Sequence record: SRR22947727_1297
Length of the DNA stretch: 41,686 nucleotides
Strand: one strand, 5' to 3'
The notes under the pieces were generated by a model, which saw only the letters and a program-made list of their open reading frames with translations, was not told the origin of the DNA and did not search any database. How positions within the stretch are numbered: position 1 is the first letter of the stretch; each line of letters begins with the position of its first letter. Positions 3,055 through 41,686 of this stretch are shown piece after piece. The translations under genes and the position numbers were made by a program.

Positions 3055-4242
3055 TTAAATAAGGTTAATGCTATTCGCTTCAATTAAGTCTATGATGTTA
3101 TTTGCTAATGCTAGAAAGTCATTTATGTCTCTACCCTTAGTAGTCTCGTAACAAGTACCGATTCTAATACCTGAACCTTGAGAGGGAGGTTTGCTATCAT
3201 TAGGGACTGTATTGTAGTTGACTATAATTTTATTCTTCTCTAGCATATCAGCTACTCTCTTTCCGGTTAAGTTACGAGAAGTAAAGTCAACTACGAACAT
3301 ATGACTTTCAGTATCACCGCCTACGATATCATATCCTCTGGCTCTAAACCGGGAGGTCATAGTACGGGCATTAACCATTACCCTGCTTGCATAATTCTTA
3401 AAGTCATCCGAAAGAGCTTCTCTGTATGCTTGTGCCTTAGCTGCAATTACATGCATTAAAGGTCCGCCTTGGGTACCTGGGAAGATAGCTTTGTTTACTT
3501 TTGTATAGATGTCAAAGTCGTTAGTTAATATCATTCCCCCTCTAGGTCCTCTTAAACTCTTATGAGTAGTCGAAGTACAGACATGAGCATGTTTGACCGG
3601 ACTTGAATAAGCTTTACCAGCTATAAGTCCACTGTAGTGGCTAAAGTCGGCTAAAAAGATAGCTCCAACTTTATCAGCTATTGCTCTAAATTCAGACCAT
3701 TCTATGGTTTGAGCATAGGCACTGTAGCCGGCTATGATCATATCCGGTTTTACTACCTCAGCGTATGCTGCTATCTTTCCGTAATCAAGTAAATTATCTT
3801 CTCCAAGCTCGTAATTAAATACTGTATAAAGTTTGCCTGATATGTTTACTTTGGTTCCGTGAGATAGATGTCCACCTTCCGGAAGACCTAAAGATAGAAT
3901 TTTATCTCCTGGTTCAAGTAAGGCCTGCATTACGGCTAGGTTGGCATTAGCACCAGAATGAGGTTGAACGTTAGCATATTCTGCTCCGAAGAGCTCTTTA
4001 GCTAAATCTTGTGCATAAATTTCTAACTCATCATAGTACTTACACCCTTGGTAGTAACGTTTTCCAGGATACCCTTCAGCATATTTGTTAGTGAAAGGTG
4101 ATCCTGTTAACGCCATTACTTCTCTTGACGCTATGTTTTCAGATGCTATAAGATTAATCTCTTTAGATTGTCTTTTGATCTCTGAGTTAAGTAGGTCTTG
4201 TAATTTGTCGTCTATAGCCAATTTTTCTCTAAAAGTAAACAT
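3055..4242 (-). CDS. glyA: Serine hydroxymethyltransferase
   Basis: LIASEN, NKYAEGYPGKRYYQGC, NVQPHSG, GGHLSHG, PLP-lysine motif TTHKSLRGPRGG, FPGTQGGP, SGIRIGT. Confidence 0.96.
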   Translation of the reverse strand: MFTFREKLAIDDKLQDLLNSEIKRQSKEINLIASENIASREVMALTGSPFTNKYAEGYPGKRYYQGCKYYDELEIYAQDLAKELFGAEYANVQPHSGANANLAVMQALLEPGDKILSLGLPEGGHLSHGTKVNISGKLYTVFNYELGEDNLLDYGKIAAYAEVVKPDMIIAGYSAYAQTIEWSEFRAIADKVGAIFLADFSHYSGLIAGKAYSSPVKHAHVCTSTTHKSLRGPRGGMILTNDFDIYTKVNKAIFPGTQGGPLMHVIAAKAQAYREALSDDFKNYASRVMVNARTMTSRFRARGYDIVGGDTESHMFVVDFTSRNLTGKRVADMLEKNKIIVNYNTVPNDSKPPSQGSGIRIGTCYETTKGRDINDFLALANNIIDLIEANSINLI

Positions 4243-4262: not shown

Positions 4263-6116
4263 TTATACTACCTCGCAAGAGGCACCAATACAGGCCAGCT
4301 CTCCGGCTAAGTCTGTATCGTCAGTCATTTCTATAACCTTAGTTAAGTCTATTCCTTTAAGAGATTCAAACATCTCTTCATAAACTTCTTTGGTAGTATC
4401 TTCAAAAGGTGCTTGTTGATAGGAGCCTCCAAAGTAAGGAAGAACTGATAGCCCGTTGAAGGTATTTCTATTCTCCCACATCCATTCTCCTACCATCTCC
4501 CATTCGTCTTCTTTTACAGAAACTGTAGCAGAAACGTTATGAGTGTTTTGTCCGTCGATGTGACCGGGATGTACCCATTCTGTGTTCCACCTCTTTACTC
4601 TCTCTAAAAAGTCTATTACGCTTTCCGTTCTATAGATGGCACCCTCAGGAGCCTTTTGAGGTACTTGAATTACGGCTTGTTCGGTAGGCCTAAAGAATTC
4701 ATCCTCTACTAGTTCTGGATGGTTTTGAGCTAGGTAAGTATAGATGGCTTCGTTCTTTCCTACTCTAATTCTTCTGATGTAGTAATCGTTATGCCATCCG
4801 TGAATACCAGAGCTTACTCCAAGTACTAAGGAAGATGTTCCGGAAGGTTTAACTGTAGTAGTTCTAGCAGCAGCATTGATACCGAGTAGTCCGGCTATTC
4901 TTTTATTCTCTTCTTTTACTATTTCAGCTGCTTCAGTAAGATTTAAGTCAGCACATTTATTAGAAGCAACACCGGTCATACCTACTCCGATTAAAGCATC
5001 TTTTTCTGTAGTACGTCTCCAGACGTCTCTTAAGTAATGGAAGTCAGTATAGCCGGCCTGTAGAGTTCCAATAAAGGCTCCTACTCTAGCTCTTTCGTTT
5101 AAGTCTTCCTGGCTTTCTACTGTACTTGCATTTAACTCTGTAAGGTTACAGAACTGATAAGGACGTAAAGCTATTTCGGCACATGGATTGGTTCCCCAAT
5201 CTTTGTCGTTAGAAAAGATAACACCAGGTTCACCGCTACCGCTTTTTTCTACTTTATCCCAAACTTTAAGAAATTTATCTTTCGTAATTTTATGTCGAAG
5301 AACTAGAGCTGAATTATTAGCTCTACCTCTTTGAGGATTAGACTCCCACCAATTACCAAACTTGGACGTTAACATACTTTCGTCATCTATAGAGAAAAGA
5401 GATATTAAAGCCGCTCTTCTTATACCACCAGCTAGTACTGCATCAGCTATATGACAGACTATGTCATGAGCTTCTAATGAAGTTAATTTAGAACCAACCT
5501 TTTTAGATTCAAGAATACTTCTTACGTTATGAATACAATCTTTTAACGGCTGAGGTCCTGGAGCCTTTCCTCCTGAAGTAACAAGCAGAGCTCCTTTAGG
5601 TCTAATATCAGAAAAGTCAAAGATAGGTTGCGACTTTCCGTAAAAGTAAGAATGCATTAAAACTTTAATTGCATCAGCCCATCCTTCTATACTGTCTCCA
5701 ATCAAGAATCTTCTCTTACGGTCAAGCGGTCCTCTTAAAATAGGAAGATCTTCTATGTGATGATTCTGTACTGAGTATCCTACTCCGGTACCGCCAAGTA
5801 GTAAGAACATAATCTCACCAAAAACGTCTGGGTGATCGATAGGAGCGTAAGCACAGTTATAAACTCTGTTAGGAGAAATCTGGATTGGCTTTCCGCCAAA
5901 CTGTAAACTTCTCATTGATGGTAAAACCTTTTTATCGTAAACGTATTTGTATGCTTCCTCTATTTCGTCTTTTAGATCAGGGTACGTTTCCTGATGCATT
6001 TCTTTGTTTCTTGTTACTGTTTCTTCCCAAGTCTCTCTCCTAAATTCGTTAGGTAAGTACTTGGCATATTTCATATAAGTTGTTATGTCGGAAAGGATTT
6101 GATTGCTAATCTCCAT
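4263..6116 (-). CDS. nrdJ: Class II (adenosylcobalamin-dependent) ribonucleotide reductase, monomeric RTPR-like
   Basis: RRETWEE, LPSMR, YNC, GTNPCAEI radical loop, QFCNL, TVKPSGT, C-terminal CIGASC redox pair; no beta subunit adjacent. Confidence 0.9.
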   Translation of the reverse strand: MEISNQILSDITTYMKYAKYLPNEFRRETWEETVTRNKEMHQETYPDLKDEIEEAYKYVYDKKVLPSMRSLQFGGKPIQISPNRVYNCAYAPIDHPDVFGEIMFLLLGGTGVGYSVQNHHIEDLPILRGPLDRKRRFLIGDSIEGWADAIKVLMHSYFYGKSQPIFDFSDIRPKGALLVTSGGKAPGPQPLKDCIHNVRSILESKKVGSKLTSLEAHDIVCHIADAVLAGGIRRAALISLFSIDDESMLTSKFGNWWESNPQRGRANNSALVLRHKITKDKFLKVWDKVEKSGSGEPGVIFSNDKDWGTNPCAEIALRPYQFCNLTELNASTVESQEDLNERARVGAFIGTLQAGYTDFHYLRDVWRRTTEKDALIGVGMTGVASNKCADLNLTEAAEIVKEENKRIAGLLGINAAARTTTVKPSGTSSLVLGVSSGIHGWHNDYYIRRIRVGKNEAIYTYLAQNHPELVEDEFFRPTEQAVIQVPQKAPEGAIYRTESVIDFLERVKRWNTEWVHPGHIDGQNTHNVSATVSVKEDEWEMVGEWMWENRNTFNGLSVLPYFGGSYQQAPFEDTTKEVYEEMFESLKGIDLTKVIEMTDDTDLAGELACIGASCEVV

Positions 6117-22090: not shown

Positions 22091-22524
22091 ATTTTATAGA
22101 ATTCGATATAGTCAAGTGCATCCATAAAATCTTTTTTACCAAAAGCTTTAGCACCTTTCATATCCATTTTGTAGAGTTGCCCCTCTGGGTATTTATCTTT
22201 TTCTTCTTCTAAGATACGAACGGCCCTAGCAGCTTTCCAACTCCAATTTCGTTTATCTGTACCGTCGATAAATACCATACCTTTTTCCGGAATAGATATT
22301 GTAGCCGGAAACCAGACCAGGCCTTCTTTTACAACTGATAAATCCTTGTAAAGGTCAGGAGATGTTTCTTCAGTCTCTTTTACCAGGTCTAATCCTTTCT
22401 TCATTAATGTAGAAGTTGACATACCGCAACCAAAACAGAGGTATGTTGTAACGTTTTGTTCTTCTAATACTTGTTCGTAGCAGGCATTCCCACTACATAT
22501 TTTACATGTAATTAAATTATCCAT
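22087..22524 (-). CDS. Hypothetical protein with N-terminal Zn-ribbon
   Basis: CKIC...CFGC. Confidence 0.65.
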   Translation of the reverse strand: MDNLITCKICSGNACYEQVLEEQNVTTYLCFGCGMSTSTLMKKGLDLVKETEETSPDLYKDLSVVKEGLVWFPATISIPEKGMVFIDGTDKRNWSWKAARAVRILEEEKDKYPEGQLYKMDMKGAKAFGKKDFMDALDYIEFYKI

Positions 22525-23791
22525 CTATCTTTTTTAACTTAGGTAATTTAAGTTTAGGTAGGTTGAGCTCTACCTGCTGGGCAAATTCAGGTACATTTTT
22601 AGTTAAAATGTTCTCTACTAATTCAACCATCTTTTCAAAGCTAAAATTATTTTTAGTATGCATTTTATGCTTACGAGATTTAGTAACAAGACTCTTATAG
22701 TCTTTAAATGATTGCTTCAGAGCCGTACCTACCTGACCGTCGTCAGGTTTAAACCAACTTGATTCTTTTAGTAGTACTTTTTCTACAGAAGCTGATGGAT
22801 GTACTTTTTCAAGTTCTCCACCGATAAGCATGGTATAGTCTTTATGTAAGAAATCTAACTGACCTGACCATCCTGATGCTATAATAGGCTTACCGGTTGT
22901 AGTGAACTCCAGTAATGGCCTACCGAAGCCTTCTCCTTTATTAAGGCTCAACATCACTTTAACTTTAGGATGGTTGTATAAGCCATTTATTTCTTGATCG
23001 GACATTTCACCATGGAGTAGGTAGATGTTAGGCAGGCTGCCTTTTACGGTTCTACGTATTTGATCTATCTTATCGAGAATAGTTTCTCTGTCAATAATCG
23101 ATGTACCTACTTGATGCGTCTTTAAAAGTAATGCCGGTGGTTTGCTCTTATTTTTGAAGGTCTCTAAAAAGGCTTTAATGGTATAGCCAATATTTTTTCT
23201 ATCATGACCGAAGTCTCCTTTCATCCAATGACCAACTACCAGGTAACAGAACGATTCAGGTATAGGTAAGTCAACAGAAGTTACATCTTTATCTTGGTAC
23301 TTAGTTAAATCTACTCCCTCAAATACAACTTCAACCGGAGTAGTTAACTTTAACTCCTGTTTTTGTTTTGTTTTATTATCCTCTATGGTATAAATTGTCT
23401 GTTCAAAGACTCCTTTAGAATGCTCTGAAGATGTAAGTATAATGTCCATATTATTACATCCTTGTATCCATTCTGCAGCACAAATAGTAGTCTCTATACC
23501 TGCAGTTACTCCAATATTATATTTACCTACTTTTTGAAATTCATTAGGTACTGAGATCTGCATCCATACATCCGGTTGAGCGGTGAGGTTAGGGACGATT
23601 CTGGCTCTAAGGTCTGATTCGTTATGATCTTCTAAGTACCCGAATCTTGTATTACCCCATCGTTGAGATAGAATTTTGACATCCCAGTCAGGTTTAGCTT
23701 TAATTATAGCTTTAACTAAATCACGGCTACGGGCTCCATAACCGGAATAAGTATCTATTGGACAACTTATTACGCAACTTGCTTTACTCAT
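22517..23791 (-). CDS. GT-B glycosyltransferase, family 4-like
   Basis: SGYG, DRKN, KGEGFGRPLLE...GKPIIASGWSG..DFL. Confidence 0.88.
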   Translation of the reverse strand: MSKASCVISCPIDTYSGYGARSRDLVKAIIKAKPDWDVKILSQRWGNTRFGYLEDHNESDLRARIVPNLTAQPDVWMQISVPNEFQKVGKYNIGVTAGIETTICAAEWIQGCNNMDIILTSSEHSKGVFEQTIYTIEDNKTKQKQELKLTTPVEVVFEGVDLTKYQDKDVTSVDLPIPESFCYLVVGHWMKGDFGHDRKNIGYTIKAFLETFKNKSKPPALLLKTHQVGTSIIDRETILDKIDQIRRTVKGSLPNIYLLHGEMSDQEINGLYNHPKVKVMLSLNKGEGFGRPLLEFTTTGKPIIASGWSGQLDFLHKDYTMLIGGELEKVHPSASVEKVLLKESSWFKPDDGQVGTALKQSFKDYKSLVTKSRKHKMHTKNNFSFEKMVELVENILTKNVPEFAQQVELNLPKLKLPKLKKIDG

Positions 23792-23793
23792 TC

Positions 23794-25242
23794 TTAATAT
23801 CCAAAAAGGTTATGTGTTATATATTTTCTCGGTCTATCTACTGCTTTATGAATTTCGTATCTAGGACGAGGTATAAATTCTTCAAAGCCTCTATCACAGT
23901 ACTCTATAACTCTGTTAGCCATTTTTATAGCTGTAAAACCGGCTTCTTCTGACCTAGCCCACTCCCGGCCGGCTATTCCTCTTTTCTTTCTCTCTTCTGG
24001 TCCTAAGTTATATGTAAACTCTAAAGCAGCTCCTACGTCTTCAATACTGCATCTATCGTCAAAGATATAAGGAGTAGGAGGAGAACCTACCAGAGATCTA
24101 TTTGATGGAAAGACAGGTACTGCCCACTCACCATGTTCTTTAACAGAACCTAAATGGTTAGATGGAAATTCAGGAGTAAAGTCAATCCACTTCCCGTCCT
24201 TAGCAAATCTCATTTGATCCTGCATACCGCCGGTAGCGTTAGCAATAATCATAGTACCGGTCATCATAGCTTCGGTTAAAGATAGCCCCCAACCCTCATT
24301 AGAGGAAATAAGCACATTTACATCAGCTATATTATAAAGTAAGTTCATTTGCTCTGATGCTAATTTCTCTCTGGAGAAGAAAACATTTACGTACTCTGGG
24401 TCGCAGAATGCTTCTTTTACTGCATATAAATCCGTACCGTTATTATCAACCGGAGATGTATGCATTACTAAAGCACACTTCTTAGCCTTTTCTTTTCCTA
24501 TTCTATCACAGAAGTTTCTGTAAGCCAGGATTACATCACCCGGGCTCTTACGTCTAATATTTCTAGAATTATAGAAAGCTACAAACTCTATCTCTTTATC
24601 ACCAAAAATATTGTTTCTAAAGTTTTGATATTCTTCATATTGTTCAAACGATTCATCGATAGGAAAGAAAAACTTCTCATTTATACCATGAGGAACATAT
24701 TCAATAATTTTATCGTCAGCATACTCACCTAGAACTATCTCATTAATATTTTTAGTCTGTTTTGAAATAGCTAACAGTACGTCTACTGAGTTATAGAAAT
24801 TTTTATTGTACAAAGGAGCTGGATAGTCGTCCCAGATGTTAAGGTAGAAAATAGGTATCTTGCTTCTAATCTCTCGTTCTATTTCAAATAACCATACCCA
24901 GTATCTAGGGTCGGTAAAAAGAAATAAAGCGTCTGGTTTCTCCATTTTAATTAACTGACGAATCTTCATAGCATCACCGTACCCGGAGCTAGGAATAATT
25001 TTTACACTAGCGTCCTCTATACCGGCATGCTTATTTACATCCTCTGATATATCAAATGCTTTCCCTTCTTGGTCATGTTTAACAGCACCACCTAAATTAA
25101 CCCAGTTAAAGTGGTGGGCACTATTAATTACAATCTCTCTTGCCATCGTACCGACACCGGAGTGTAATCTTATATCGTCAGAGAGAAGAAGTATTTTTTT
25201 TCTTTCTTCTTTAGGTAAAAAACGAAACTTATCTTTCATCAA
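23794..25242 (-). CDS. GT-B glycosyltransferase, family 4-like
   Basis: SGVG, VPHG, SRNIRRK, SNEGWGLSLTEAM..G..IIANATGG. Confidence 0.88.
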   Translation of the reverse strand: MMKDKFRFLPKEERKKILLLSDDIRLHSGVGTMAREIVINSAHHFNWVNLGGAVKHDQEGKAFDISEDVNKHAGIEDASVKIIPSSGYGDAMKIRQLIKMEKPDALFLFTDPRYWVWLFEIEREIRSKIPIFYLNIWDDYPAPLYNKNFYNSVDVLLAISKQTKNINEIVLGEYADDKIIEYVPHGINEKFFFPIDESFEQYEEYQNFRNNIFGDKEIEFVAFYNSRNIRRKSPGDVILAYRNFCDRIGKEKAKKCALVMHTSPVDNNGTDLYAVKEAFCDPEYVNVFFSREKLASEQMNLLYNIADVNVLISSNEGWGLSLTEAMMTGTMIIANATGGMQDQMRFAKDGKWIDFTPEFPSNHLGSVKEHGEWAVPVFPSNRSLVGSPPTPYIFDDRCSIEDVGAALEFTYNLGPEERKKRGIAGREWARSEEAGFTAIKMANRVIEYCDRGFEEFIPRPRYEIHKAVDRPRKYITHNLFGY

Positions 25243-30721: not shown

Positions 30722-32368
30722 TTATCCTAACAGCATCTCCGGCGATATCTCTCCGGGGCTGTCCTCTTCATCAATGTTAGAGATAACGGCTTCAGTCGTT
30801 AACATGGTTCCGGCTACCGAAGCAGCGTTCTCTAACGCCAATCTTGTAACTTTGGCCGGATCTATAATACCGGCTTCATACATATCTACGAATTCTTCCG
30901 TACGTGGATTATATCCGAACCAAAGATTCTCTTCTTTGATAATTGTTTCCTGTTTTATTGCTATGGAGAGTTTATCACCAAATGCATTATGGAGAATCAA
31001 TTTAAACGGAGTATTTAAGCACTGGGTTAGAAGCATATAGCCGATTTTTTGGTCTGGATGTCCAAATCTTAGTTCTACTTCTTCTAATAGAGTTTCAAGA
31101 TGTTGCTGGGCTCTTAGTAAGGCTACACCTCCGCCTGGGAGAATACCTTCTTCCAAGGCTGCTCTTGTGGCATGTAAGGCATCTTCAACTCTATCTTTCT
31201 TTTCCTTCATTTCGATCTCTGTATGACCGCCTACATGAAGTACTCCAACTCCGCCTACCAATCGTCCTAAACGTTCCTGTAGCTTTTCTATTTCGAAAGG
31301 AGATACGGAATCATCTATAAGAGCTTTAATAGTTTCCACTCTTTCTACGATAGCTTCTTCAGTACCTCTACCGTCAACGATGGTTGTATCATCTTTACCA
31401 ACGGTTACCTTTCTCGCTTTACCTAACCACTCCATATTAAACCGATCAAGTTTCATTCCTTTCTCTTTAGAAATTACTTGACCACCAGTAAGAACGGCTA
31501 TATCTGATAAAGCTTCTTTCTTTCGATCTCCGTACTCAGGAGCTTTAACTGCTACTACGTTAAGGATACCTCTCATTTTATTAACAACAAGAGTACTTAA
31601 TGCCTCTCCGTCTATATCATCTGCGATGATTACGAGAGATTTATTTTGACTAGAGCAAGCCTCAAGTAGTGGTAGAAGTTCTTTTGCCTTAGTGATACGT
31701 TCTTCTGCAATTAATATGAGAGGATTCTCTAATGTAGTCGACATCGTTTTGTTATCTGTAACAAAGTACGGTGACTTATATCCTCTATTGAACTGCATAC
31801 CTTCTACTGTCTCTAAATAAGTTTCACCGGTACGGCTTTCTTCAATAGTAATTACACCGTCCTGGCCTACTTTATCCATAGCCGTAGCAATTAATAAACC
31901 TACTTCTTCATCGTTATTAGCTGAGATAGTAGCTATCTGCTCTAATTGAGATTCAGATGTAATCTCTTGAGATAGATCTTGAAGAAAGTCTACAGTGTCT
32001 ACTACTGCTTGATCTATACCACGTTTAATATCCACGGAGTTATGATCGGCTAAAGCCTCAAGGCCGGCATTAAAAATTTCGGCTGCAAGTACGGTTGAGG
32101 TAGAGGTACCATCACCGGCTTCGTCGGCCGTCTTAACGGAAGCTTCTCTTACAAGCTGTGCTCCCATGTTCTCTATCTCATCTCTTAGCTCTATAGACTT
32201 AGCTACTGTTACACCGTCTTTGGTAGATGAAGGATTGCCTTGAGATTGCTGTATAATAACTGTACGGCCGTTTGGTCCTAAAGTAGCGCCTACGGCATTA
32301 CTAAGTATGGAAGCACCTCTACTTAAAGCATCTCTAGCTGATTCAGAAAACGTTACTTCTTTTTTCAT
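30722..32368 (-). CDS. groEL: Chaperonin GroEL
   Basis: [69 protein letters not shown]. Confidence 0.97.
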
Positions 32369-32679
32369 ATTTCTTCTACCTCTATATCTTCTTCTACGAT
32401 TGCTAATATTTCTCTGTCTTGTACTATGTAGAACTCTTGACCTTCTAGCTCTACTCTTATAGAACCTATTTTAGGTACTAGAACTACTTGACCTACTTTG
32501 GCTTTAACTGGTATGTGCTTACCAAACTCGGACATACGTCCGGGACCGGCTGCTATAACCTCTCCCATTTCCGGTCTTTCTTTCCCCATATCCGGTACAA
32601 TTATATTCCCATATAACTGTTCATCCTCTTCAATAGGTTTAACGACAACTCTGTCGTTAGCAGGATTTAATTTTTTCAT
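32365..32679 (-). CDS. groES: Co-chaperonin GroES
   Basis: LNPANDRVVV, GNIIVPD..KERP..GEVIAAGPG, KVGQ.VL, EILAIV. Confidence 0.95.
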   Translation of the reverse strand: MKKLNPANDRVVVKPIEEDEQLYGNIIVPDMGKERPEMGEVIAAGPGRMSEFGKHIPVKAKVGQVVLVPKIGSIRVELEGQEFYIVQDREILAIVEEDIEVEEI

Positions 32680-33547: not shown

Positions 33548-34168
33548 TTAGGAAAATTTCCAACCTTGTTTATTAGCATGATGACAATAGTAGCCGTTAT
33601 CTTGAATTTCGTCTTCAAACATAAAGATCCTAGAATAGCTACATTGGTCAAGCCACATCGATAGAGATATAGGACCAAACGGTTCGTACTTTCTAGAATA
33701 ATCTACATCAGTTCTATTTTTAGCAAACTCTATTAACTCCCCAAAGATACCCGGTTTAGCATAAACAAGCATATCATCGTTACGTTTAAAGTCTCTTTCC
33801 TTCTCTCTAGGAAAGGAACGAACCGGAATAAAAAGGTCAACGTCGGTGACATTGTTTTTCTTAAATTTATCTGTTATAAGTTCATCTAGTGTACGGTTCC
33901 ACATTATATCTAGATCTACATACCAACCGCCATACTTATCTAAAATAGAATACTTTACAAAGTTATATTTGTTAATAAAAGTTTTTAACTCATAAAATTC
34001 TTCTAACTTATCTTCTAGTCTTAAAAAATATTCTATATCAGGAGGAGTCCAGAGTATAGTTTTATAAGATGGATGCTTTTTTACAAAAGAACTATAACAA
34101 TCATTATAGAACTTTGGAAGACTTCCTAACGAAAAGAATATAAAATGAGCTAATGGCTTAGTGCCCAT
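33548..34168 (-). CDS. DXD glycosyltransferase (Gly_transf_sug/GT32-like)
   Basis: HFIF, HPSY..ILWT, ILDKYGGWYVDLD, FGP; start overlaps the polymerase end. Confidence 0.8.
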   Translation of the reverse strand: MGTKPLAHFIFFSLGSLPKFYNDCYSSFVKKHPSYKTILWTPPDIEYFLRLEDKLEEFYELKTFINKYNFVKYSILDKYGGWYVDLDIMWNRTLDELITDKFKKNNVTDVDLFIPVRSFPREKERDFKRNDDMLVYAKPGIFGELIEFAKNRTDVDYSRKYEPFGPISLSMWLDQCSYSRIFMFEDEIQDNGYYCHHANKQGWKFS

Positions 34169-36488
34169 CCCGCCAATTATCAGATATTTCCGGAGGAGCT
34201 TTAAGAGTTACTCCTTCAAGTTGAGTAGTCTCTTCCATAAGCTTTTGAACGATAGGAGCAAACTCTTCTGCTTGATCTTCTCTTACGTTAATGATCAACT
34301 GATCATGCACTTGAGCTTGTACTACGGCGTCAATACCTATCTCTTTGGCTTTACGATTAATCTGTACGGCGGCACGGTTAACTACGGCAGCAGCTAGAGA
34401 CTGTAACTGAAAGTTAAGACAGTTGTTAAGTCCGTTACGGTAGTCACGGTACACTTTCATAACTTTGTCTTTATCGTATCTCTGTTCTAGCTCTTTTCTA
34501 AATCGCCAGTCAAGAATCTTTTCACCAAACTTCTCTTGTACTCTTTGAACTTTAGGCAGGTGACGGATACGGCCTACTTTATTCTTTATAAAGCCGTAGT
34601 TCTTAACCTGCTCTCTAGAGTTAACACGCCATTCCTTTAGCTGAGGGAATCCGTTTAAGTAACCGTCTACAAGCTTTTCTGCTTCTTTAGTAGGTATCTC
34701 TAAGGTTCTGCCGAGAGCATATGCCTCCATCCCGTAAGCAATACCTAACGAGTATGCCTTAGCTTGGTTACGTTTGACTGGGTCGACTTTCTTCAAGAAG
34801 TTAGGAGCAGATTTATCGGCACTTACGCCTTCAAGCTTTTCAGTTTGTATGGCTACCGTAGAGTAGAAGTCGTAATTTTTATTAAAGATCTCTCTAAGCC
34901 TTTCATCTCCGGATACAGAAGCAAAGCAATGCGGTTCTAAGGACTCGTAATCAGCATCAATAACCTTACGTCCTTTACCGGCAGTTAAGAAGGCTCGTAC
35001 TATATTCGTATAACGAACTATAATAGGAGCATCTTCACCTTCTTCTTTAGGTTTAGGTAACTGCTGGGCATCTGAACCATAGCGTCCTGATACAGTACCG
35101 TTCTGTTTAAAGTAAAAATAGTACCTACCATCTTCAGCACCGTCTATGAAACGGTCCACGTAGGTAGACTTGATCTTGAGTAGTTTGTTGTAAACTCGAA
35201 GGTTTTCGGCCCAGTCATATTTCTTTGATAAGACTTCGAGCATTCCCATGTCGAACTGATCTTGACCTTTTGACGTTTTGGAGATAGCTTCTTCTCCAAT
35301 ATATTTAAATACGATTTCACCGAGATGCTTTTTAGATTGAATGTTTATAAAGTCGCCGTCGTTTTTTTCTTTCCATAAGTTAGTAGATATACGTAGTACA
35401 TCGTTAGCTTCTAGATGATCTAAGTCACCGGAAAGTAGAAAGTTCTTTATGTTAGTAGGACAGTCTTCTTCTTCTAGCTCTTCAATACGTTTCTGGGTTA
35501 GAGAATACTTACCGGTCTTTTCGCTTTTAGGTAGGTTAACCGAAAACATCTTAACCAGCTCTTGAGCCCAGTTACCTTTATTATTAGGAGGGAACTCTCT
35601 TAAAGAAGTATCTATTACCCAGTTCTTAGCCTCAGGTATCTTAAGAAGACTCTCCATAACAATCTTACGATTGGCTGCTAAATCGGCTTTTATCTCCTCA
35701 TTAGTCTTTTCAAGTAACTCCATATCTAAGTCTACTCCAAACTCCTCCATAGGTACGGTAACTTCTTTGTAGATAGGCATTACTTCTTCATCGAAGAAAA
35801 ACTCTTCTAGACCTTCGTCTTTAAGCCGTTCCAGGTAGAGGTAACAGATACGTAAAGTTAGATCAGTATCGGCGGCAGCATACTTACCTAAGATATCTAA
35901 GTCGGCTTTATAGATCTCAAAGTTGACTTTAGTTATCTCGCCACCGTTAGCTTTAATAGACTCTTTTAGTTCTATCTGCTCTTTGTTAGCATCCTCTTCA
36001 ACATCTAGTCCAAGTTCTTTCTGGTTCATAATAGCTATCGATTTTAGTCCAAAAGGGTTACCAAACCCGAAGGCACCCTCCTCGTAGACCGTATGAACCA
36101 GTAAAGCGGTATCAATCCATAAGTCTTCTAATAGATCAACACCGTAATAGTTTTTAGTAAACCGGGTATCAAAAGAAGCATTATGCATTACAAGCTTCTT
36201 ACCTTTTAGCATAGGTAGCAGAGTCTTAGATATCTTATGAGCTCCGGTACCGCTAATCATATACTCGTCAAGGGTTTGAGTATCCGGGTTCCAGACCTGA
36301 GTAGGGAGATAGTATCCCATACCTACGTCACCGGAAACCGACCAACCGACTATAGATCCCTTTCTCATATTAAGACTATCGGTCTCAGTATCGTACGCTA
36401 TTACGTCAGAAGCTTCAATATGCTTCATCAGTTCCAGTACGTCTTCCTTCGTTCTTACGATCTTATAACTTTTATTTAATTCTTGCAT
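34158..36488 (-). CDS. polA: Family A DNA polymerase with 3'-5' exonuclease, phage type
   Basis: Exo I YDTET, Exo II HNASFD, Exo III YAAAD; GTVSGR; motif A DADYESLE; motif B RNQAKAYSLGIAYG; motif C QVHD. Confidence 0.95.
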   Translation of the reverse strand: MQELNKSYKIVRTKEDVLELMKHIEASDVIAYDTETDSLNMRKGSIVGWSVSGDVGMGYYLPTQVWNPDTQTLDEYMISGTGAHKISKTLLPMLKGKKLVMHNASFDTRFTKNYYGVDLLEDLWIDTALLVHTVYEEGAFGFGNPFGLKSIAIMNQKELGLDVEEDANKEQIELKESIKANGGEITKVNFEIYKADLDILGKYAAADTDLTLRICYLYLERLKDEGLEEFFFDEEVMPIYKEVTVPMEEFGVDLDMELLEKTNEEIKADLAANRKIVMESLLKIPEAKNWVIDTSLREFPPNNKGNWAQELVKMFSVNLPKSEKTGKYSLTQKRIEELEEEDCPTNIKNFLLSGDLDHLEANDVLRISTNLWKEKNDGDFINIQSKKHLGEIVFKYIGEEAISKTSKGQDQFDMGMLEVLSKKYDWAENLRVYNKLLKIKSTYVDRFIDGAEDGRYYFYFKQNGTVSGRYGSDAQQLPKPKEEGEDAPIIVRYTNIVRAFLTAGKGRKVIDADYESLEPHCFASVSGDERLREIFNKNYDFYSTVAIQTEKLEGVSADKSAPNFLKKVDPVKRNQAKAYSLGIAYGMEAYALGRTLEIPTKEAEKLVDGYLNGFPQLKEWRVNSREQVKNYGFIKNKVGRIRHLPKVQRVQEKFGEKILDWRFRKELEQRYDKDKVMKVYRDYRNGLNNCLNFQLQSLAAAVVNRAAVQINRKAKEIGIDAVVQAQVHDQLIINVREDQAEEFAPIVQKLMEETTQLEGVTLKAPPEISDNWRDGH

Positions 36489-36947
36489 TTATTTTAATCT
36501 ACAATCTTTAGGTATAAAATCTCCATTATCTAATGTTTTTAGAGCGTGGCAGTTTTTACATAGGAGGCGATAATTATCTGGATGTTCGCCTTCAAGAGTA
36601 TGTTTAATATCGGAATTTATATGATCAACATCAACTAAAGTTGCTAACTCCTCCAAAGTTCTATCGGGATAAATATCCTTAAGGTTTATCTTACAGTCTT
36701 CGCAAATAAGTTTACCTTTATTATAGGCTTGTATTTTGTAGCGAAGATGAGGTCTAGAAGATGCGTTAGAGCAAATAGTATTAGAAAAGTGCTCACTACA
36801 GTACTTAGTTTTCCAATGTACATCACTAGCTATAACATTAGAACAGTAGTGAAGATTACACTCTCTTCTTGTATTACTATAATGTCTTGCATCTATGATT
36901 GGAGTATCTCTCACATCAAAACCTAAACTACTTAAAAAACCGCTCAT
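36489..36947 (-). CDS. HNH endonuclease
   Basis: CEDC...DVDHI...DNYRLLCKNCHALKT, plus an N-terminal Cys/His cluster. Confidence 0.85.
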   Translation of the reverse strand: MSGFLSSLGFDVRDTPIIDARHYSNTRRECNLHYCSNVIASDVHWKTKYCSEHFSNTICSNASSRPHLRYKIQAYNKGKLICEDCKINLKDIYPDRTLEELATLVDVDHINSDIKHTLEGEHPDNYRLLCKNCHALKTLDNGDFIPKDCRLK

Positions 36948-36971: not shown

Positions 36972-37607
36972 TTACTTAATAGAAGATACTATCTCGTTTA
37001 CTATTTTGACTATAGGGTTATTCAACTCAGTATCTCTTAAACCAATTTTATAGCCATACCCATGTAAATTTAAAATATTCCATCCGTATAAGTCTTTTCT
37101 TAATTCACGTACTGCCGACCTCATTTCTTTGTTTTTCATACTTTTACGAATCTCACGTTCAGTAACGTATTGGTAACCGTTGCAGATGTTAATTTTAAGT
37201 ATATGGTAGAAAACTCTAAAAGCATGTCTATCGAAAAATTTATCTTTTCCTAATCTAGATAAAGTACCATCACCATTGGTTTTAACTATTGTTGATATAG
37301 CAACTAATTCTTTTAACATCTCTAAAGGAGGCCTTGTTGCTAATTTTTGTTTCACTTGTACGTCAAATCCTAATTTGGCTAATTCCGCATTAAGTTGTAC
37401 TCTAAGCCATTCTACTGGGTATGTATTTGCGAGTTGACCATTATCTGCTGTTTGTTGACCAGTTTGTACGCCTTGATCAGCTGCGGCTGCTCGTATAGAG
37501 TATAAAACCTTATTATACTTATCACGACCTAGGTCATTATAGACTAAGTTAGCCCAAGCTTTTTTGCTACCTAAATCTTCTACGATAACATCATAAATTG
37601 ATTTCAT
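36972..37607 (-). CDS. Hypothetical basic protein
   Basis: 211 aa with its own promoter motif upstream. Confidence 0.65.
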   Translation of the reverse strand: MKSIYDVIVEDLGSKKAWANLVYNDLGRDKYNKVLYSIRAAAADQGVQTGQQTADNGQLANTYPVEWLRVQLNAELAKLGFDVQVKQKLATRPPLEMLKELVAISTIVKTNGDGTLSRLGKDKFFDRHAFRVFYHILKINICNGYQYVTEREIRKSMKNKEMRSAVRELRKDLYGWNILNLHGYGYKIGLRDTELNNPIVKIVNEIVSSIK

Positions 37608-37686: not shown

Positions 37687-37929
37687 CTAGTACTCCCCAT
37701 ACAAATCCCAGACTTCTGGTTCTGGTTCCGGAGCATCTACTTCTTTTATAGCATATAATTTTCCATCTAAAGGTGCAAGTCTATACTCGCCTTTGAACTT
37801 AGTTTTACGTAAGTAAGCCGTTAACGTATTTACTAAACCTTCAATGATTTCATCATCACCATCAACCAAAGACCAATTGTCTCCAGGCGGTACTCTTGAT
37901 GCAATTAATTCTAGATTTTCTTCTATCAT
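37687..37929 (-). CDS. Hypothetical protein
   Basis: 80 aa, ATGA-coupled to queF. Confidence 0.65.
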   Translation of the reverse strand: MIEENLELIASRVPPGDNWSLVDGDDEIIEGLVNTLTAYLRKTKFKGEYRLAPLDGKLYAIKEVDAPEPEPEVWDLYGEY

Positions 37930-38840
37930 TGACGTAAAGTTTTCTTTAATCTTACTGATTCGCTAAAAAATGCTCTAGGAATCATTTCCTGAGATGTGGC
38001 ACGGATAGGATTAATATCTAATCCGCCTCTTCTAGTATAGAGACAGGATACCATTAATTCGTCTGGTTCATATGCTTGCATTAAATGAGTGAATACCATC
38101 TCGTTTATCTCTTCGTGGAAGTGAGATACCTTTCTATGACTTACAATATATTCTGCTAGAGAAGTATAGTTAGGTTCGTTCTTTCCTACCATATGAATGA
38201 ATATATCACCCCAATCCGGTTGATTGGTAACCCGGCAGTTTGAACGTAAAAGATCTGACTGTATCTTAAACTCTTGGCCGGTTTCATGAACCTTAGATGT
38301 TTTCAGAGAATCTGCATCTGAGTAATAGTTATCGAACTCGATCATATCTAAGTCAGTCAAATACTGAAGTTTGGTAAAACCTTGAAAGTGAAAGCTTTCA
38401 GATGCTTCATCAGTAAACATTTTAGTAGCTACTGAACGTCCAAGTAGTAAAGTTAGGTCTTTAGCTACTCTTGCTTCAAAGATACTAATAGCTTGTTCGG
38501 CCGTATCTCCCATCCGAGTCATATTATACGAATTGAGGTATAACTTAATTGACTTACTTTCTACGTGAGTAATAGAGCTTGCCGGACATACAATCTTCAT
38601 CATACCTGATACCGGGAGTCCTCTGTGAGTAAGTACGCTGACTTCGTATGCATTCCAAACATCATATCCGAAGAACGGTAAGTTATTATCATCTATACCG
38701 TAAGCTTCTCTATTTAACTTACGAGGTATTCCTACTAATAGCCCGGGATCGTATTGATCTTTATAGCCGTCACCGCCAACTTTACCTAAATGCTTACCAG
38801 CAATTTTGGTTACTTCATTATAATTCTTTACTTCGCTCAT
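37926..38840 (-). CDS. queF: NADPH-dependent preQ0 reductase QueF, bimodular type
   Basis: WNAYE.S, QueF motif VESKSIKLYLNS, catalytic LLRSNC.VT.QPDWG, FHE, YTRRGGLDINP. Confidence 0.95.
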   Translation of the reverse strand: MSEVKNYNEVTKIAGKHLGKVGGDGYKDQYDPGLLVGIPRKLNREAYGIDDNNLPFFGYDVWNAYEVSVLTHRGLPVSGMMKIVCPASSITHVESKSIKLYLNSYNMTRMGDTAEQAISIFEARVAKDLTLLLGRSVATKMFTDEASESFHFQGFTKLQYLTDLDMIEFDNYYSDADSLKTSKVHETGQEFKIQSDLLRSNCRVTNQPDWGDIFIHMVGKNEPNYTSLAEYIVSHRKVSHFHEEINEMVFTHLMQAYEPDELMVSCLYTRRGGLDINPIRATSQEMIPRAFFSESVRLKKTLRQ

Positions 38841-39358
38841 TTAATAAACTCCATAATTTGATCGACTCTCTGCATAGGGGAGCCAGTTATTGTTAATCTT
38901 TTATAGTCTGGTAGTAGTTCTAATTGTTCTATAAAACCTTCATCTACTTTACGTCTCCATTTTTCATTAACGCTTCTTACTCCATCATCTACTGCGTCAA
39001 ATTCAATAGGAAAGTAAATATAATGAGTATACTCGTCTTTAACTCTATTCCAAGTATTTTGAATAAAAGCTTTGGTATTCATTCTAACGTTAGGTAGATT
39101 TCTAGTATAAACTACTAGATCCATATAACATCTGTCTAATACTAAGTTATAGGGTTTAAGTAAAGCTTCTAAATGAAAACTACTGATGGCTAGTTGAGTT
39201 GCATCAGTACCGTTCTCGTTTATAGCAAAATCATATTTTTTAACTGAACGAGTACTTTCGTTTACAAACTCGTACTTAGGTAATTTATTCTTTAATAGTT
39301 CATAAACAGTAGTCTTACCTGTACTAGAACTTCCAACTAATGCTATTCGTTTAACCAT
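38837..39358 (-). CDS. P-loop nucleoside/nucleotide kinase (AAA_28/NadR/dNMP-kinase-like)
   Basis: GSSSTGKTT Walker A, LVLDR..D, DDGVR lid. Confidence 0.8.
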   Translation of the reverse strand: MVKRIALVGSSSTGKTTVYELLKNKLPKYEFVNESTRSVKKYDFAINENGTDATQLAISSFHLEALLKPYNLVLDRCYMDLVVYTRNLPNVRMNTKAFIQNTWNRVKDEYTHYIYFPIEFDAVDDGVRSVNEKWRRKVDEGFIEQLELLPDYKRLTITGSPMQRVDQIMEFIK

Positions 39359-39942
39359 GTAATCTCCTCAAAGAATTTTATCCATAAATCTAACGATGCC
39401 TCTGTTAATATACGATAAGTATCTTCTAACTTCAAGCCTTTTAAGCTTACTTCTTGAAATAGAAGGATAGGTCCTTCGTCAAGTTCAGGAGTAAGCTCAT
39501 GTATCACTGAACCTCCGATATCATAGTTACCTAAGTACGCTTTTAATTGAGGATCTTTTCCTCTTAGCTCTGGATACTTAGTTATTAAACCAGGATGTCC
39601 ATTAAATGCTTGATACTTAAAACATAACGTAGCAGGAACTATTCTTAACCATCCATGCATCGTTAGTATCTTATCTCTATGCTCATACCCTACTGCGTTT
39701 ATATAATCGTGAACGGTAGGTCGGTTTACGGTATGAAAGATTTTATGCTTATAATTTTTTAATAGCCAGGGATTACCTTTCTCTTCTAACTGTTCTGCAG
39801 TTAGGTTAGTTATAATCCTATCAGGCACTCTACCGGTTTGCTTAATAATATTAGCAAGTTCGGTACCAGTTTGACTAAAGAAAGCACACCACTCCTTAGC
39901 CTGTATAGTTCTTAAGTTTCTTATTCCTGTTTCGTGTATCAA
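39343..39942 (-). CDS. dpdN: PurN-like 10-formyl-THF-dependent formyltransferase, probable preQ1 formyltransferase
   Basis: FFSQTGT, GWLRIVP, catalytic NGHP, GSVIH...ELDEGPIL; sits between dpdA and queF. Confidence 0.8.
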   Translation of the reverse strand: MIHETGIRNLRTIQAKEWCAFFSQTGTELANIIKQTGRVPDRIITNLTAEQLEEKGNPWLLKNYKHKIFHTVNRPTVHDYINAVGYEHRDKILTMHGWLRIVPATLCFKYQAFNGHPGLITKYPELRGKDPQLKAYLGNYDIGGSVIHELTPELDEGPILLFQEVSLKGLKLEDTYRILTEASLDLWIKFFEEITWLNE

Positions 39943-40751
39943 AATAAACTAGCCTCCGGTTTGTTCCAAAATGTTCTGAATCGCTGTATATTCCAAAATG
40001 CTCTATTATCTATAGGAGCTGGAGTATTGATAAGTTCAAATAACTTTTGACTTTCTTTATCCCATAATCCTTGGTCTGAGTATTCAATTCCTTTCATTCC
40101 ATGTACTACCGGGTTAGAAGTATCCATAGAATAAATCCAATCGTAGTCCGAATGCTTATAAAAGAGTCCTTCTTGAGGTAAACCTACTCCGAGTAAATGA
40201 TGCTTCATATTAGTATCAATTACTCCGTCATATAACATTCTACCCAGTAAAGCAGGACGTCCTAACATCCAACTAACGTACTTGTTTGTATGAGGAGCTG
40301 TCCATTCGTAGTAGGAGTAATCAAACGAAATAGCAATCATATCTACATTTGCCTCGTTCTTCATATAGTTATAACAATCAACTATTTCATCATATTCCTT
40401 ACCTTGAACTACTCCTATCTTCCCGCTACCTTCATAACCTAACCCTCTGTTATTCCAATCCTCCATCTGATCGATAGTCTTGTAAGCATCCTCAAGAGCA
40501 TCTGGAACTATATACCAAGTAGGTTTAAGATAGTTAATCCATTTATCAAACTTATCGGCATCAAAAGCTTCTTCTAATTCAAAAATAGAATTATCTAATA
40601 TAACCTCTCTACCGTTCTCTAATGCTTCCTTGAAGAGGTTAAAGTATTCTTCGTCTTCTTCAAACAAATGAACTAATGCATAGTCGTAATCGGTATAGTT
40701 CTGAACTTTTTTAAATATAGACTTTGGAGACTCATGAGCTATTTTTATCAT
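39939..40751 (-). CDS. dpdA: TGT-fold deazaguanine transglycosylase, DpdA (probably DpdA3-like)
   Basis: ILDNS..E, IVPD, IGVVQG, HHLLG, SMDTSNP are spaced like TGT barrel motifs; no tRNA-TGT Zn site; folE/queF context. Confidence 0.75.
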   Translation of the reverse strand: MIKIAHESPKSIFKKVQNYTDYDYALVHLFEEDEEYFNLFKEALENGREVILDNSIFELEEAFDADKFDKWINYLKPTWYIVPDALEDAYKTIDQMEDWNNRGLGYEGSGKIGVVQGKEYDEIVDCYNYMKNEANVDMIAISFDYSYYEWTAPHTNKYVSWMLGRPALLGRMLYDGVIDTNMKHHLLGVGLPQEGLFYKHSDYDWIYSMDTSNPVVHGMKGIEYSDQGLWDKESQKLFELINTPAPIDNRAFWNIQRFRTFWNKPEASLF

Positions 40752-40951
40752 TCAGCATCTCCTTCTGCTATCTTACGTATTGCCTCATTTACTTCTGATA
40801 CAGATTCTTGTATAGAGCTGAGGGCTAGATTGAATTTATCTGTATATAGTTCTTCGACTATCTTACGAACTACGGATACCGGAAGTACTTCTGTTTGAAG
40901 TTCGTTACTAAAGGACTTACTATCTTCTATTAATTTTACTATATTATGCAT
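40748..40951 (-). CDS. Hypothetical protein
   Basis: 67 aa, overlaps both neighbours. Confidence 0.6.
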   Translation of the reverse strand: MHNIVKLIEDSKSFSNELQTEVLPVSVVRKIVEELYTDKFNLALSSIQESVSEVNEAIRKIAEGDAE

Positions 40952-41486
40952 TTTTAACTCTATCTATTTCTTCTTGGGTGAAAAATTGCTTAAGATTAGG
41001 TCTAAAGTAGTTTATAGATTTCATAACTTTATCGTCAGATTTTCTATAGACTACCCATACATCTCCTACCTGTTTGGTATAACAAGGACCATGCTCGGGG
41101 ATACGGGCCTGAATAGTTTGGTTAGCTATCTCATAAGTTTCACAAGTCTTAGACATATTAGAAGCTTGAACTTCTTCGAATGCAGCCATTAACTTATCTT
41201 TCAAACCAAATACCATAGTAGCATTTCCGATAGCCACGTAAAGTAAATCGCAGATACCGTCTAATACTTCCACTATGTCTCTATTCTCAATAGCTTCTTC
41301 TAACTCTTGAGTCTCTTCCTTTATAAAATCTATTACAAAGTTTATAAGTTTTTCGTCTTTGGGTATAACCGGGGTATAGTTATTTGGCTTACCAAACGTA
41401 TCGTTAAAAATTTCTACTTCAGATACGAAAGGTACATAGGTAGACTGTTCTGGTTTTTCTGTAAATAGGTCTAACTGTTCATTCAT
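40944..41486 (-). CDS. MazG-like / PRA-PH all-alpha dNTP pyrophosphohydrolase
   Basis: IKEETQEL...EVLDGICDLLYV (EExxE...ExxD...D), AFEEVQASNMSK, KVMK. Confidence 0.85.
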   Translation of the reverse strand: MNEQLDLFTEKPEQSTYVPFVSEVEIFNDTFGKPNNYTPVIPKDEKLINFVIDFIKEETQELEEAIENRDIVEVLDGICDLLYVAIGNATMVFGLKDKLMAAFEEVQASNMSKTCETYEIANQTIQARIPEHGPCYTKQVGDVWVVYRKSDDKVMKSINYFRPNLKQFFTQEEIDRVKNA

Positions 41487-41686
41487 CCTCTACATACTCC
41501 TGCTAGTTCTATGTTTTTATAAAATTCTGCTCTTGCAGCATCTTCTTCTAGAAAGCATCCGGTTAATTTAGCCGTCTGCATAGAAGCTCCATGATGCTTA
41601 ACTCCTCTACAGCTTACGCAATTATGGGTAGCATCTATCATTACGGCTACTCCAATATTACCTTCACATATCTTATCTACTGCATT
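41483..41686 (-). CDS. folE: GTP cyclohydrolase I, C-terminal part (partial at the right edge)
   Basis: Hand translation ...GVAVMIDATHNCVSCRGVKHHGASMQTAKLTGCFLEEDAARAEFY...*, matching the FolE H-x-C-x-x-x-RG and R-x-EF motifs. Confidence 0.9.
   Translation of the reverse strand, partial: NAVDKICEGNIGVAVMIDATHNCVSCRGVKHHGASMQTAKLTGCFLEEDAARAEFYKNIELAGVCRG

Follow-up and report, generated by a model that had tools for sequence, protein, structure and literature searches.

Complete replacement of guanine in virion DNA by 7-deazaguanine derivatives is tied in PMC10516641 to the DpdA3 subfamily of DNA guanine transglycosylases, represented there by phages CP220, phiST and the Flavobacterium phage vB_FspM_immuto (immuto below). 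For immuto, liquid chromatography–mass spectrometry of virion DNA is reported to give dA, dC, dT and a nucleoside of 324 Da that a synthetic standard showed to be fdPreQ1, the formylated preQ1 deoxynucleoside: it amounts to 345,000 per 10^6 nucleotides, the dG peak is absent, no dPreQ1 is recorded and the phage is resistant to many restriction enzymes (PMC10516641). The same source names the immuto protein YP_010114479.1 (PF00551) DpdN and predicts it to be a formyltransferase. Here a related locus is described, which occupies positions 37687–41686, the final 4 kb, of SRR22947727_1297, a stretch of 41,686 nucleotides that was analysed as a whole and is termed the window. Its eight minus-strand open reading frames (ORFs) very probably belong to a DpdA3/DpdN-type 7-deazaguanine DNA hypermodification operon, as judged from homology and synteny, with fdPreQ1 in place of all dG as the most likely outcome. 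This degree of confidence applies to the identity of the operon and its product only; the stage at which the base is exchanged is assessed separately. The phage is an uncultured, marine-type relative of immuto.

The immuto genes are arranged in the order QueD, QueE, phosphoribosyltransferase, FolE, DUF4494, hydrolase, small ORF, DpdA, small ORF, formyltransferase, 'thymidylate kinase', QueF, two small ORFs and PolA. The window shares this gene order from FolE to PolA, and its products from FolE to the terminal 80-residue ORF are 44–78% identical to those of immuto at the amino-acid level. Megablast of the 4-kb operon returned no nucleotide-level match among 50,697 phage records, and the two phages are therefore different, at least at the species level. 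A sequence-only reading of the stretch had listed seven of the genes as joined by overlapping start and stop codons, and had pointed to a DpdA3 plus DpdN system reported to make fdPreQ1 in a Flavobacterium phage. ORF coordinates and family scans place all seven on the minus strand where that reading had put them, stop and start codons overlap at all seven junctions (by 4, 8, 4, 4, 16, 4 and 4 nucleotides from FolE to the 80-residue ORF) and the phage in question is immuto (PMC10516641). The 80-residue ORF is an eighth gene that the earlier reading did not list.

The operon order recurs in 160 related loci, 80 from IMG/VR and 80 from metagenomes, and for this reason the arrangement cannot be ascribed to chance. 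The usual order in these relatives is (QueC) QueD QueE phosphoribosyltransferase FolE (DUF4494) MazG DpdA3 DpdN kinase QueF, followed by the 80-residue ORF and PolA. In the closest lineage (loci L085–L091) DpdA3 is 80–98% identical to that of the window and a 67-residue ORF is held in common. One member, L088, with a DpdA3 that is 92% identical, carries QueD, ThyA and a divergent QueE upstream of FolE, QueD and QueE directly so; its QueE is 25% identical to immuto QueE (E 1e-11). QueC is located further upstream in 12 of the 80 metagenome loci, and 11 kb upstream of QueD in immuto. Given these gene positions in the relatives and in immuto, it is reasonable to expect queC, queD and queE of this phage to the right of the window, consistent with its closest relatives. 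Many relatives harbour a 131-residue phosphoribosyltransferase (PF00156, E 1e-8) between QueE and FolE, as in L001:6843–7238 and in 40 of the 80 IMG/VR loci; the 5 kb ahead of FolE in L088 showed none.

In the proposed pathway FolE, together with QueD, QueE and QueC encoded past the window edge, would convert GTP to preQ0, from which QueF would produce preQ1. DpdN would then formylate the aminomethyl group of preQ1, presumably with 10-formyl-tetrahydrofolate as donor, and DpdA3, a minimal TGT-fold (tRNA-guanine transglycosylase) enzyme, would swap guanine for the 7-deazaguanine. By this pathway the packaged DNA would most likely contain fdPreQ1 in place of all dG and be resistant to restriction. 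The operon is recognized by the identities of its genes, the fold and conserved catalytic residues of their products and its synteny, and from these we infer the reaction of DpdN and the substrate of DpdA3.

Transglycosylase and formyltransferase of the operon

The DpdA3 protein shares 69.2% identity with what four vB_FspM_immuto records annotate as DNA guanine transglycosylase DpdA, and 38.7–40.3% with proteins in 14 Campylobacter phage records, 18 matching records in total. No Pfam or NCBIfam family matches it, its sole PHROG match is phrog_19058 ('unknown function') and a single-sequence search of the PDB gave a chance match only (E 0.28). The AlphaFold2 (AF2) model, built on a 65-sequence alignment, has a predicted local distance difference test (pLDDT) score of 96.3: the top Foldseek rows are all tRNA-guanine transglycosylases, with E-values from 1.3e-7, and VIA-align superposes 234–236 of the 270 residues with Z 17.6 and a root-mean-square deviation of 3.3–3.5 Å. 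The TGT fold proposed by the sequence-only reading is borne out by this model and its structural matches, and the relation to DpdA3 by the identity to the immuto protein.

The DpdA3 family profile matches bDpdA (7ui4) weakly (E 0.06), placing D210 on the nucleophile Asp256 and L187 on Leu236 across a stretch that reads HLLG...S-x-D-[ST]-x-P. Two further aspartates, D53 and D84, are shared by all 65 aligned sequences and lie at strand ends of the model; they probably correspond to the other two bDpdA aspartates, Asp95 and Asp130. DpdA3 consists of little more than the barrel itself: nothing in it corresponds to Ins8, the large insertion of bDpdA, and because it has only one cysteine, it is devoid of a zinc site. 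Among the genes for 7-deazaguanine synthesis, FolE and QueF are co-encoded with DpdA3 in the operon. The acidity of DpdA3 (isoelectric point (pI) 4.66, net charge −20; family median pI 5.5) was considered as an argument against DNA binding and rejected because the phage PolA is equally acidic.

The DpdA3 family comprises 3149 proteins at E ≤ 0.001 among 3593 candidates, which fall into 1330 clusters at 50% identity, and on this count fdPreQ1 systems of the immuto type are widespread in viromes from the sea and from lakes. The earlier suspicion that the core pathway is not new holds: the system is a known one, published for immuto. The family profile also matches the phiST protein CGPG_00065 (hhalign probability 99.0%, E 3e-18). 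A few clusters carry extra domains of no recognized family, N-terminal and 317 residues long in P0124, C-terminal and of ∼160 residues in P0268, and the longer proteins of P0261 include a phrog_1485 part.

DpdN scores 28.6 bits against PF00551, just over the cut-off of 26.1. Aligned with PurN chains of known structure, it shows both the NxHP and the DxGP motif, here as NgHP and D-eGP. N114, H116 and D155 are the same in all 52 sequences compared and fall on the NxH...D motif of PurN, whose Asn-His...Asp residues we take to be catalytic. These features, together with 44% identity to immuto DpdN, agree with the earlier assignment of the gene as a PurN-like formyltransferase. The gene directly follows dpdA3 with a 4-nucleotide overlap, and the short form is co-encoded with DpdA3, FolE and QueF; co-encoding of a short form with DpdA and FolE-to-QueF is what delimits the DpdN group in PMC10516641. 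A DpdN-type gene is present in 61 of 63 IMG/VR and 49 of 49 metagenome related loci with enough flank, and natural fusions of DpdA3 to a formyltransferase occur in clusters P0159 and P0248. Prediction of a DpdA3–DpdN complex without alignments scored 0.00 against a mark of 0.34, which speaks neither for nor against binding.

Kinases and nucleotide hydrolases beside DpdA3

The operon kinase matches phrog_2107 (E 3.1e-25) and contains the Walker A motif GSSSTGKT. The top Foldseek matches of its AF2 model (pLDDT 91) are the ribosylnicotinamide kinase domain of NadR (6gyf, with nicotinamide riboside; TMq 0.77), deoxyadenosine, deoxycytidine and deoxyguanosine kinases, and thymidylate kinases; by its predicted structure the protein is a small-molecule nucleoside or nucleotide kinase. 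It is 62% identical to immuto gp203 and 32% identical to the kinase that adjoins CP220 DpdA3.

Neighbours were counted where the flank of DpdA3 was long enough, 2.5 kb or more downstream for the kinase and 1.5 kb or more upstream for MazG; the loci are related, some of them duplicated between the IMG/VR and metagenome collections, so that the counts are not independent events. A kinase-like gene accompanies DpdA3 in 112 of 112 loci, belonging to AAA_28 in 103 and to DUF3310 in 9. Of the 63 IMG/VR loci, 54 have the AAA_28 kinase, 9 have DUF3310 only and none has neither, and all 49 metagenome loci have the AAA_28 kinase. MazG of the window type stands upstream of DpdA3 in 48 of 73 IMG/VR and 44 of 44 metagenome loci.

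T7 gp1.7, a protein reported to phosphorylate dTMP and dGMP (PMC11897194), has DUF3310 as its conserved domain, and PMC9339283 describes the domain as 'implicated' in this activity. Eleven DUF3310 ORFs were found with a local profile; ten were submitted to Pfam, that of L080 being left out, and all ten exceed the PF11753 cut-off. Eight of these ten occupy the kinase slot between DpdN and QueF, while the second ORF of L069 follows QueF and, in L079, the gene immediately upstream of DpdA3 joins DUF3310 to a MazG domain. In cluster P0209 DUF3310 is fused to DpdA3 itself, with 36% identity to gp1.7 residues 123–183 (E 2e-6). The C-terminus of P0253 was dropped as a kinase fusion: it is unlike the window kinase and has no Pfam match, which leaves just a PHROG match to 'nucleotide kinase' and a short motif resembling gp1.7.

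Comparable neighbours appear in more distant lineages. In CP220 a fusion of an HD domain to an AAA_33 kinase is followed by DpdA3 and then by an AAA_28 kinase. The phiST genes encode MazG, a P-loop protein of the AAA_18 family and DpdA3, and in Bacillus phage BSTP12 PolA is preceded by a protein of the DpdA3 family (probability 99.2%, E 9.4e-20) and, before that, by a P-loop protein whose match is weak (probability 68%, dNK E 0.013). The phiST protein directly upstream of DpdA3, CGPG_00066 (L165:6481–6960), contains a Walker A motif, scores 29.8 bits against the AAA_18 cut-off of 29.4 and is given as of unknown function in PMC10516641. The BSTP12 gene BSTP12_038 (L167:6896–7684) is annotated as 'NadR trifunctional protein', and as 'polynucleotide kinase' in sister records; it stands between the P-loop gene and DNA polymerase I, near Gat-QueC, QueD and FolE, and the annotation looks wrong in view of the match to the DpdA3-family profile and the gene neighbourhood.

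Four phages whose DpdA is of another type served as controls: Seurat, Godines, vB_VhaS-tm and phi47:1 gave no match at E ≤ 1 to the kinase, MazG or DUF3310 profiles (0 of 4) and no plausible Walker A ORF within 7 kb, and five hypothetical proteins of Seurat had no kinase or hydrolase Pfam match. These controls were chosen via QueC, QueE being too divergent a marker (12 records only). In 89 Streptomyces phage records an AAA_28 kinase ∼28% identical to that of the window lies beside an FkbM-type methyltransferase (Karimac, L084, 5213–6624). A hidden DpdA3 next to this kinase was ruled out (hhalign probability 0.1%), the neighbour being the methyltransferase; as the kinase family is found in these phages without DpdA3, it is not exclusive to the deazaguanine pathway. 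The pattern in the loci examined is thus one of a nucleotide kinase, drawn from interchangeable families, that always accompanies DpdA3, often with a deoxynucleoside triphosphate (dNTP) hydrolase.

Stage of the exchange and nature of the final base

The conserved kinase neighbour suggests, without proving it, a pre-replicative route at the nucleotide level, and the balance leans slightly towards this route over a post-replicative one. DpdA3 would in this case swap the base on a free deoxynucleotide (or deoxynucleoside) and PolA would then incorporate the product, a reading held tentatively, at a little under an even chance. The MazG-like enzyme would cleave dGTP to dGMP; DpdA3 would exchange the base on the free deoxynucleotide, with DpdN adding the formyl group to the base or to the nucleotide; the modified monophosphate would be re-phosphorylated by the dedicated kinase; and PolA would build DNA with the modified nucleotide. 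The kinase-like neighbour in every one of the 112 loci and the DpdA3–DUF3310 fusion of P0209 fit such a scheme, as do the recurrence of such neighbours, from other families, in the CP220, phiST and BSTP12 lineages, their absence from all four controls, the closeness of the kinase fold to deoxynucleoside and dTMP kinases and the ADG nucleoside reported in CP220-infected cells (PMC10516641).

Several considerations pull in the opposite direction. Phages often carry kinase and hydrolase genes for ordinary dNTP supply, and we know of no TGT-family enzyme that acts on mononucleotides. In this scheme the kinase and the MazG-like enzyme, like the short DUF3310 proteins, have candidate roles, a DUF3310 domain of 60 residues being only a putative kinase by itself. 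The controls are four, screened with three local profiles and a motif, and with Pfam for five Seurat genes; the counts come from related loci and are not independent; AAA_28 kinases exist in Streptomyces phages without DpdA3; and guanine salvage could account for the kinase and the phosphoribosyltransferase. A search-level look at the literature on 7-deazaguanine, DpdA and CP220 turned up no published test of a nucleotide-level route, and the word 'kinase' is absent from the main text of PMC10516641.

The alternative is that the exchange is strictly post-replicative, as published: DpdA3 would flip out and replace every G in finished DNA, and the kinase and MazG-like enzyme, joined in relatives by the phosphoribosyltransferase, would serve only the salvage of guanine to GTP or general dNTP supply. 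This reading is credible, if somewhat less probable than an even chance. To our knowledge the substrate of every characterized TGT-family enzyme is a polynucleotide. For bDpdA it is DNA, in which guanine is exchanged by means of Asp95 and Asp256 (PMC10164549), and D210 of DpdA3 aligns with Asp256, in a profile match of E 0.06; insertion after replication is proposed in PMC10516641 for all DpdA subfamilies. Both the phosphoribosyltransferase and a kinase would find their place in a salvage loop that leads from guanine through GMP and GTP to FolE, and the AAA_28 kinases of Streptomyces phages that have no DpdA3 also sit well with a general role.

Other facts are harder to reconcile with an exchange in finished DNA. 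Complete replacement is reported for DpdA3 only, the other DpdA types reaching 0.1–30%, and DpdA3 failed the E. coli DNA-modification assay (PMC10516641). DpdA3 is a bare barrel of 270 residues with one cysteine and nothing equivalent to Ins8. Salvage, moreover, leaves unexplained both a nucleoside triphosphate (NTP) hydrolase adjoining DpdA3 in four lineages and the presence of unrelated kinase families in the same slot. The tentative preference, with slightly less than an even chance of being right, extends to the whole DpdA3 class, this operon included: the exchange would be pre-replicative, and a P-loop or gp1.7-type kinase and a dGTP-cleaving enzyme would feed the polymerase. If so, DpdA3 would be the first TGT-family enzyme found to act on a mononucleotide, and enzymes that make the swap on nucleotides would be tools for the enzymatic synthesis of 7-substituted 7-deaza-dGTPs.

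Whatever the stage, a number of points weigh against the reading of the locus as an fdPreQ1 operon. QueC, QueD and QueE of this phage are not inside the window, and the base modification is attributed to the phage by orthology. QueF reaches 251.9 bits against TIGR03138 (E 8.1e-75), under the NCBIfam equivalog cut-off of 293.45 and hence as a divergent member; it is 62% identical to immuto QueF, and both of its Pfam domains score well above their cut-offs. DpdN is the least conserved member of the operon (44% identity to YP_010114479.1), its function is only predicted, and DpdA3 activity was not demonstrable in E. coli (PMC10516641).

An unlikely reading is that the final base is dPreQ1 or another acyl derivative, DpdN being, say, a PurN-like enzyme of purine or folate metabolism. 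That DpdN is only 44% identical to the immuto protein and falls far under the NCBIfam equivalog cut-off for PurN would agree with this, as would the fact that its reaction is a prediction and that formyltransferase groups also occur in phages without deazaguanine genes (PMC10516641). Against it, DpdN occupies the syntenic slot directly behind dpdA3 with overlapping codons, is retained by 61 IMG/VR relatives out of 63 and by all 49 metagenome relatives whose flank is long enough, forms fusions with DpdA3 in P0159 and P0248 and keeps its triad invariant, and immuto DNA has fdPreQ1 and no dPreQ1 (PMC10516641). The idea that the TGT-like enzyme modifies tRNA in the manner of queuosine synthesis, for which the nearest solved folds, tRNA-guanine transglycosylases, might speak, is highly improbable given that DpdA3 is without the zinc subdomain and C-terminal RNA-binding parts, has 270 residues and one cysteine where those enzymes have 360–580 residues, and is 69% identical to a homologue from a phage with modified DNA, not tRNA (PMC10516641). 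Replacement of dG by fdPreQ1 stays the preferred reading: the earlier claim of formylated preQ1 in place of G gains a syntenic homologue of the immuto cluster, and for this phage itself would hold through orthology.

The locus, its surroundings and described systems

Table 1. Genes of the operon and other features of the window
Feature	Coordinates	Strand	Basis
FolE (GTP cyclohydrolase I), C-terminal 67 residues; gene runs past window edge	41483–41686	−	PF01227 E 8.4e-11
MazG-like all-alpha NTP pyrophosphohydrolase, 180 residues	40944–41486	−	PF01503 (PRA-PH) E 1e-10
67-residue ORF	40748–40951	−	No family match (Pfam, PHROG, NCBIfam scans)
DpdA3-type transglycosylase, 270 residues, TGT fold	39939–40751	−	Homology and predicted fold
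DpdN-type PurN-like formyltransferase, 199 residues; TTG start overlaps dpdA3 stop	39343–39942	−	PF00551
Small P-loop nucleoside/nucleotide kinase, 173 residues	38837–39358	−	AAA_28 (PF13521) E 7.2e-13
QueF, two-domain NADPH-dependent preQ0 reductase, 304 residues	37926–38840	−	QueF_N PF14819 E 6.6e-31; QueF PF14489 E 1.2e-16
80-residue acidic ORF, pI 4.2; conserved last gene of the operon	37687–37929	−	58% identical to immuto gp201
Basic 211-residue ORF, pI 9.55	36972–37607	−	No family
HNH endonuclease-like gene	36489–36947	−	phrog_5956 E 5.4e-6; PF01844 18.4 bits, under cut-off
Family A DNA polymerase PolA, downstream neighbour	34158–36488	−	70% identical to immuto PolA, 784 residues
GroEL gene	30722–32679	−	phrog_5725 E 9e-160
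Two glycosyltransferase-like genes	22517–25242	−	phrog_2170
Ribonucleotide reductase gene	4263–6116	−	phrog_367
395-residue 'methyltransferase' gene	3055–4242	−	phrog_9968 E 8.5e-146

The FolE fragment covers profile positions 130–178 of the 179 in PF01227, matches TIGR00063 (E 2.4e-12) and is 78% identical to immuto FolE over 60 residues. The MazG-like protein is 56% identical to immuto gp208 and matches phrog_671, 'nucleotide pyrophosphohydrolase' (E 1.8e-30); its acidic residues E57, E58, E61, E73 and D76 are conserved in an alignment of 40 sequences, and a sequence search of the PDB yielded nothing useful. The 67-residue ORF has homologues, 61–82% identical, confined to the closest lineage (L085–L091 and L126), and occupies the position of immuto gp207, to which no similarity is detectable. 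At the other end of the operon, the 80-residue ORF stands between QueF and PolA in many related loci; scans of Pfam, PHROG and NCBIfam found no family for it and the Protein Atlas no usable lead. A scan for sigma-70 promoters and terminators returned sites no commoner than in shuffled sequence.

Where the flank is long enough, most related loci have PolA after the operon; in one metagenome relative (L091) it matches downstream of the 80-residue ORF in three separate pieces of 95–98% identity, which suggests an insertion in the polymerase gene or a split one. An HNH gene is found by tblastn at the position of that of the window in L059, L127 and L128, and immuto has none there. The 211-residue ORF gave no usable Atlas lead and is unlike gp200, the immuto gene at the same position. 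Elsewhere in the window the large ORFs are all on one strand, and an ORF upstream of GroEL is in the GroES position; with its one-strand ORFs, GroEL, ribonucleotide reductase and glycosyltransferases, the remainder of the window looks like an immuto-type phage.

Among described routes to complete base replacement, the hydroxymethyl-dC pathway of T4 relies on a dCTPase, dCMP hydroxymethylase and deoxynucleoside monophosphate kinase, and the Z-genome phages employ MazZ, DatZ and PurZ; a hydrolase of the canonical dNTP, an enzyme that changes the base on the monophosphate and a kinase are co-encoded. With these pre-replicative pathways the operon may be compared in manner of working only: they are not homologous to it and contain no TGT-fold enzyme. 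With bDpdA, DpdA1, DpdA2 and the tRNA-guanine transglycosylases, DpdA3 shares the TIM-barrel TGT fold and, in a weak profile match, the aligned nucleophile aspartate, whereas it is ∼100–300 residues shorter, escapes the Pfam TGT family and has no zinc site. The other DpdA enzymes modify DNA only partially (PMC10516641), and no kinase or MazG-like neighbour accompanies them in the four control phages.

Within the DpdA3 subfamily, the dDG system of Cellulophaga phage phiST (DpdA3 CGPG_00065, DpdL) resembles the window in its DpdA3-family protein (the hhalign match given above) and in a MazG gene and a small AAA_18 P-loop gene between the deazaguanine genes and the polymerase. Its sequence is very distant (tblastn E 0.7), and a decarboxylase paralogue replaces QueF and DpdN, the product being 7-deazaguanine. 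Closer is the dADG system of the Campylobacter Firehammervirus CP220, with a DpdA3 ∼40% identical, an adjoining AAA_28 kinase 32% identical and complete G replacement reported (PMC10516641); it differs in that the locus shown has no QueF or DpdN, carries a fusion of an HD-domain phosphohydrolase with an AAA_33 kinase where the window has its MazG-like gene, and leads to dADG as end product. The closest described system is that of immuto, from which the window departs in detail. It is without the DUF4494 gene and the 50-residue gene between dpdA3 and dpdN, and it has an HNH gene and an unrelated 211-residue gene ahead of PolA; neither these two nor the 67-residue ORF have a counterpart at the immuto locus. 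In its closest lineage, moreover, QueE is divergent and no phosphoribosyltransferase was seen over the 5 kb upstream of FolE. The operon as such adds little to the immuto system; its value lies in the comparative pattern around DpdA3, which makes the question of 100% G replacement testable at the bench, with many enzyme variants to hand.

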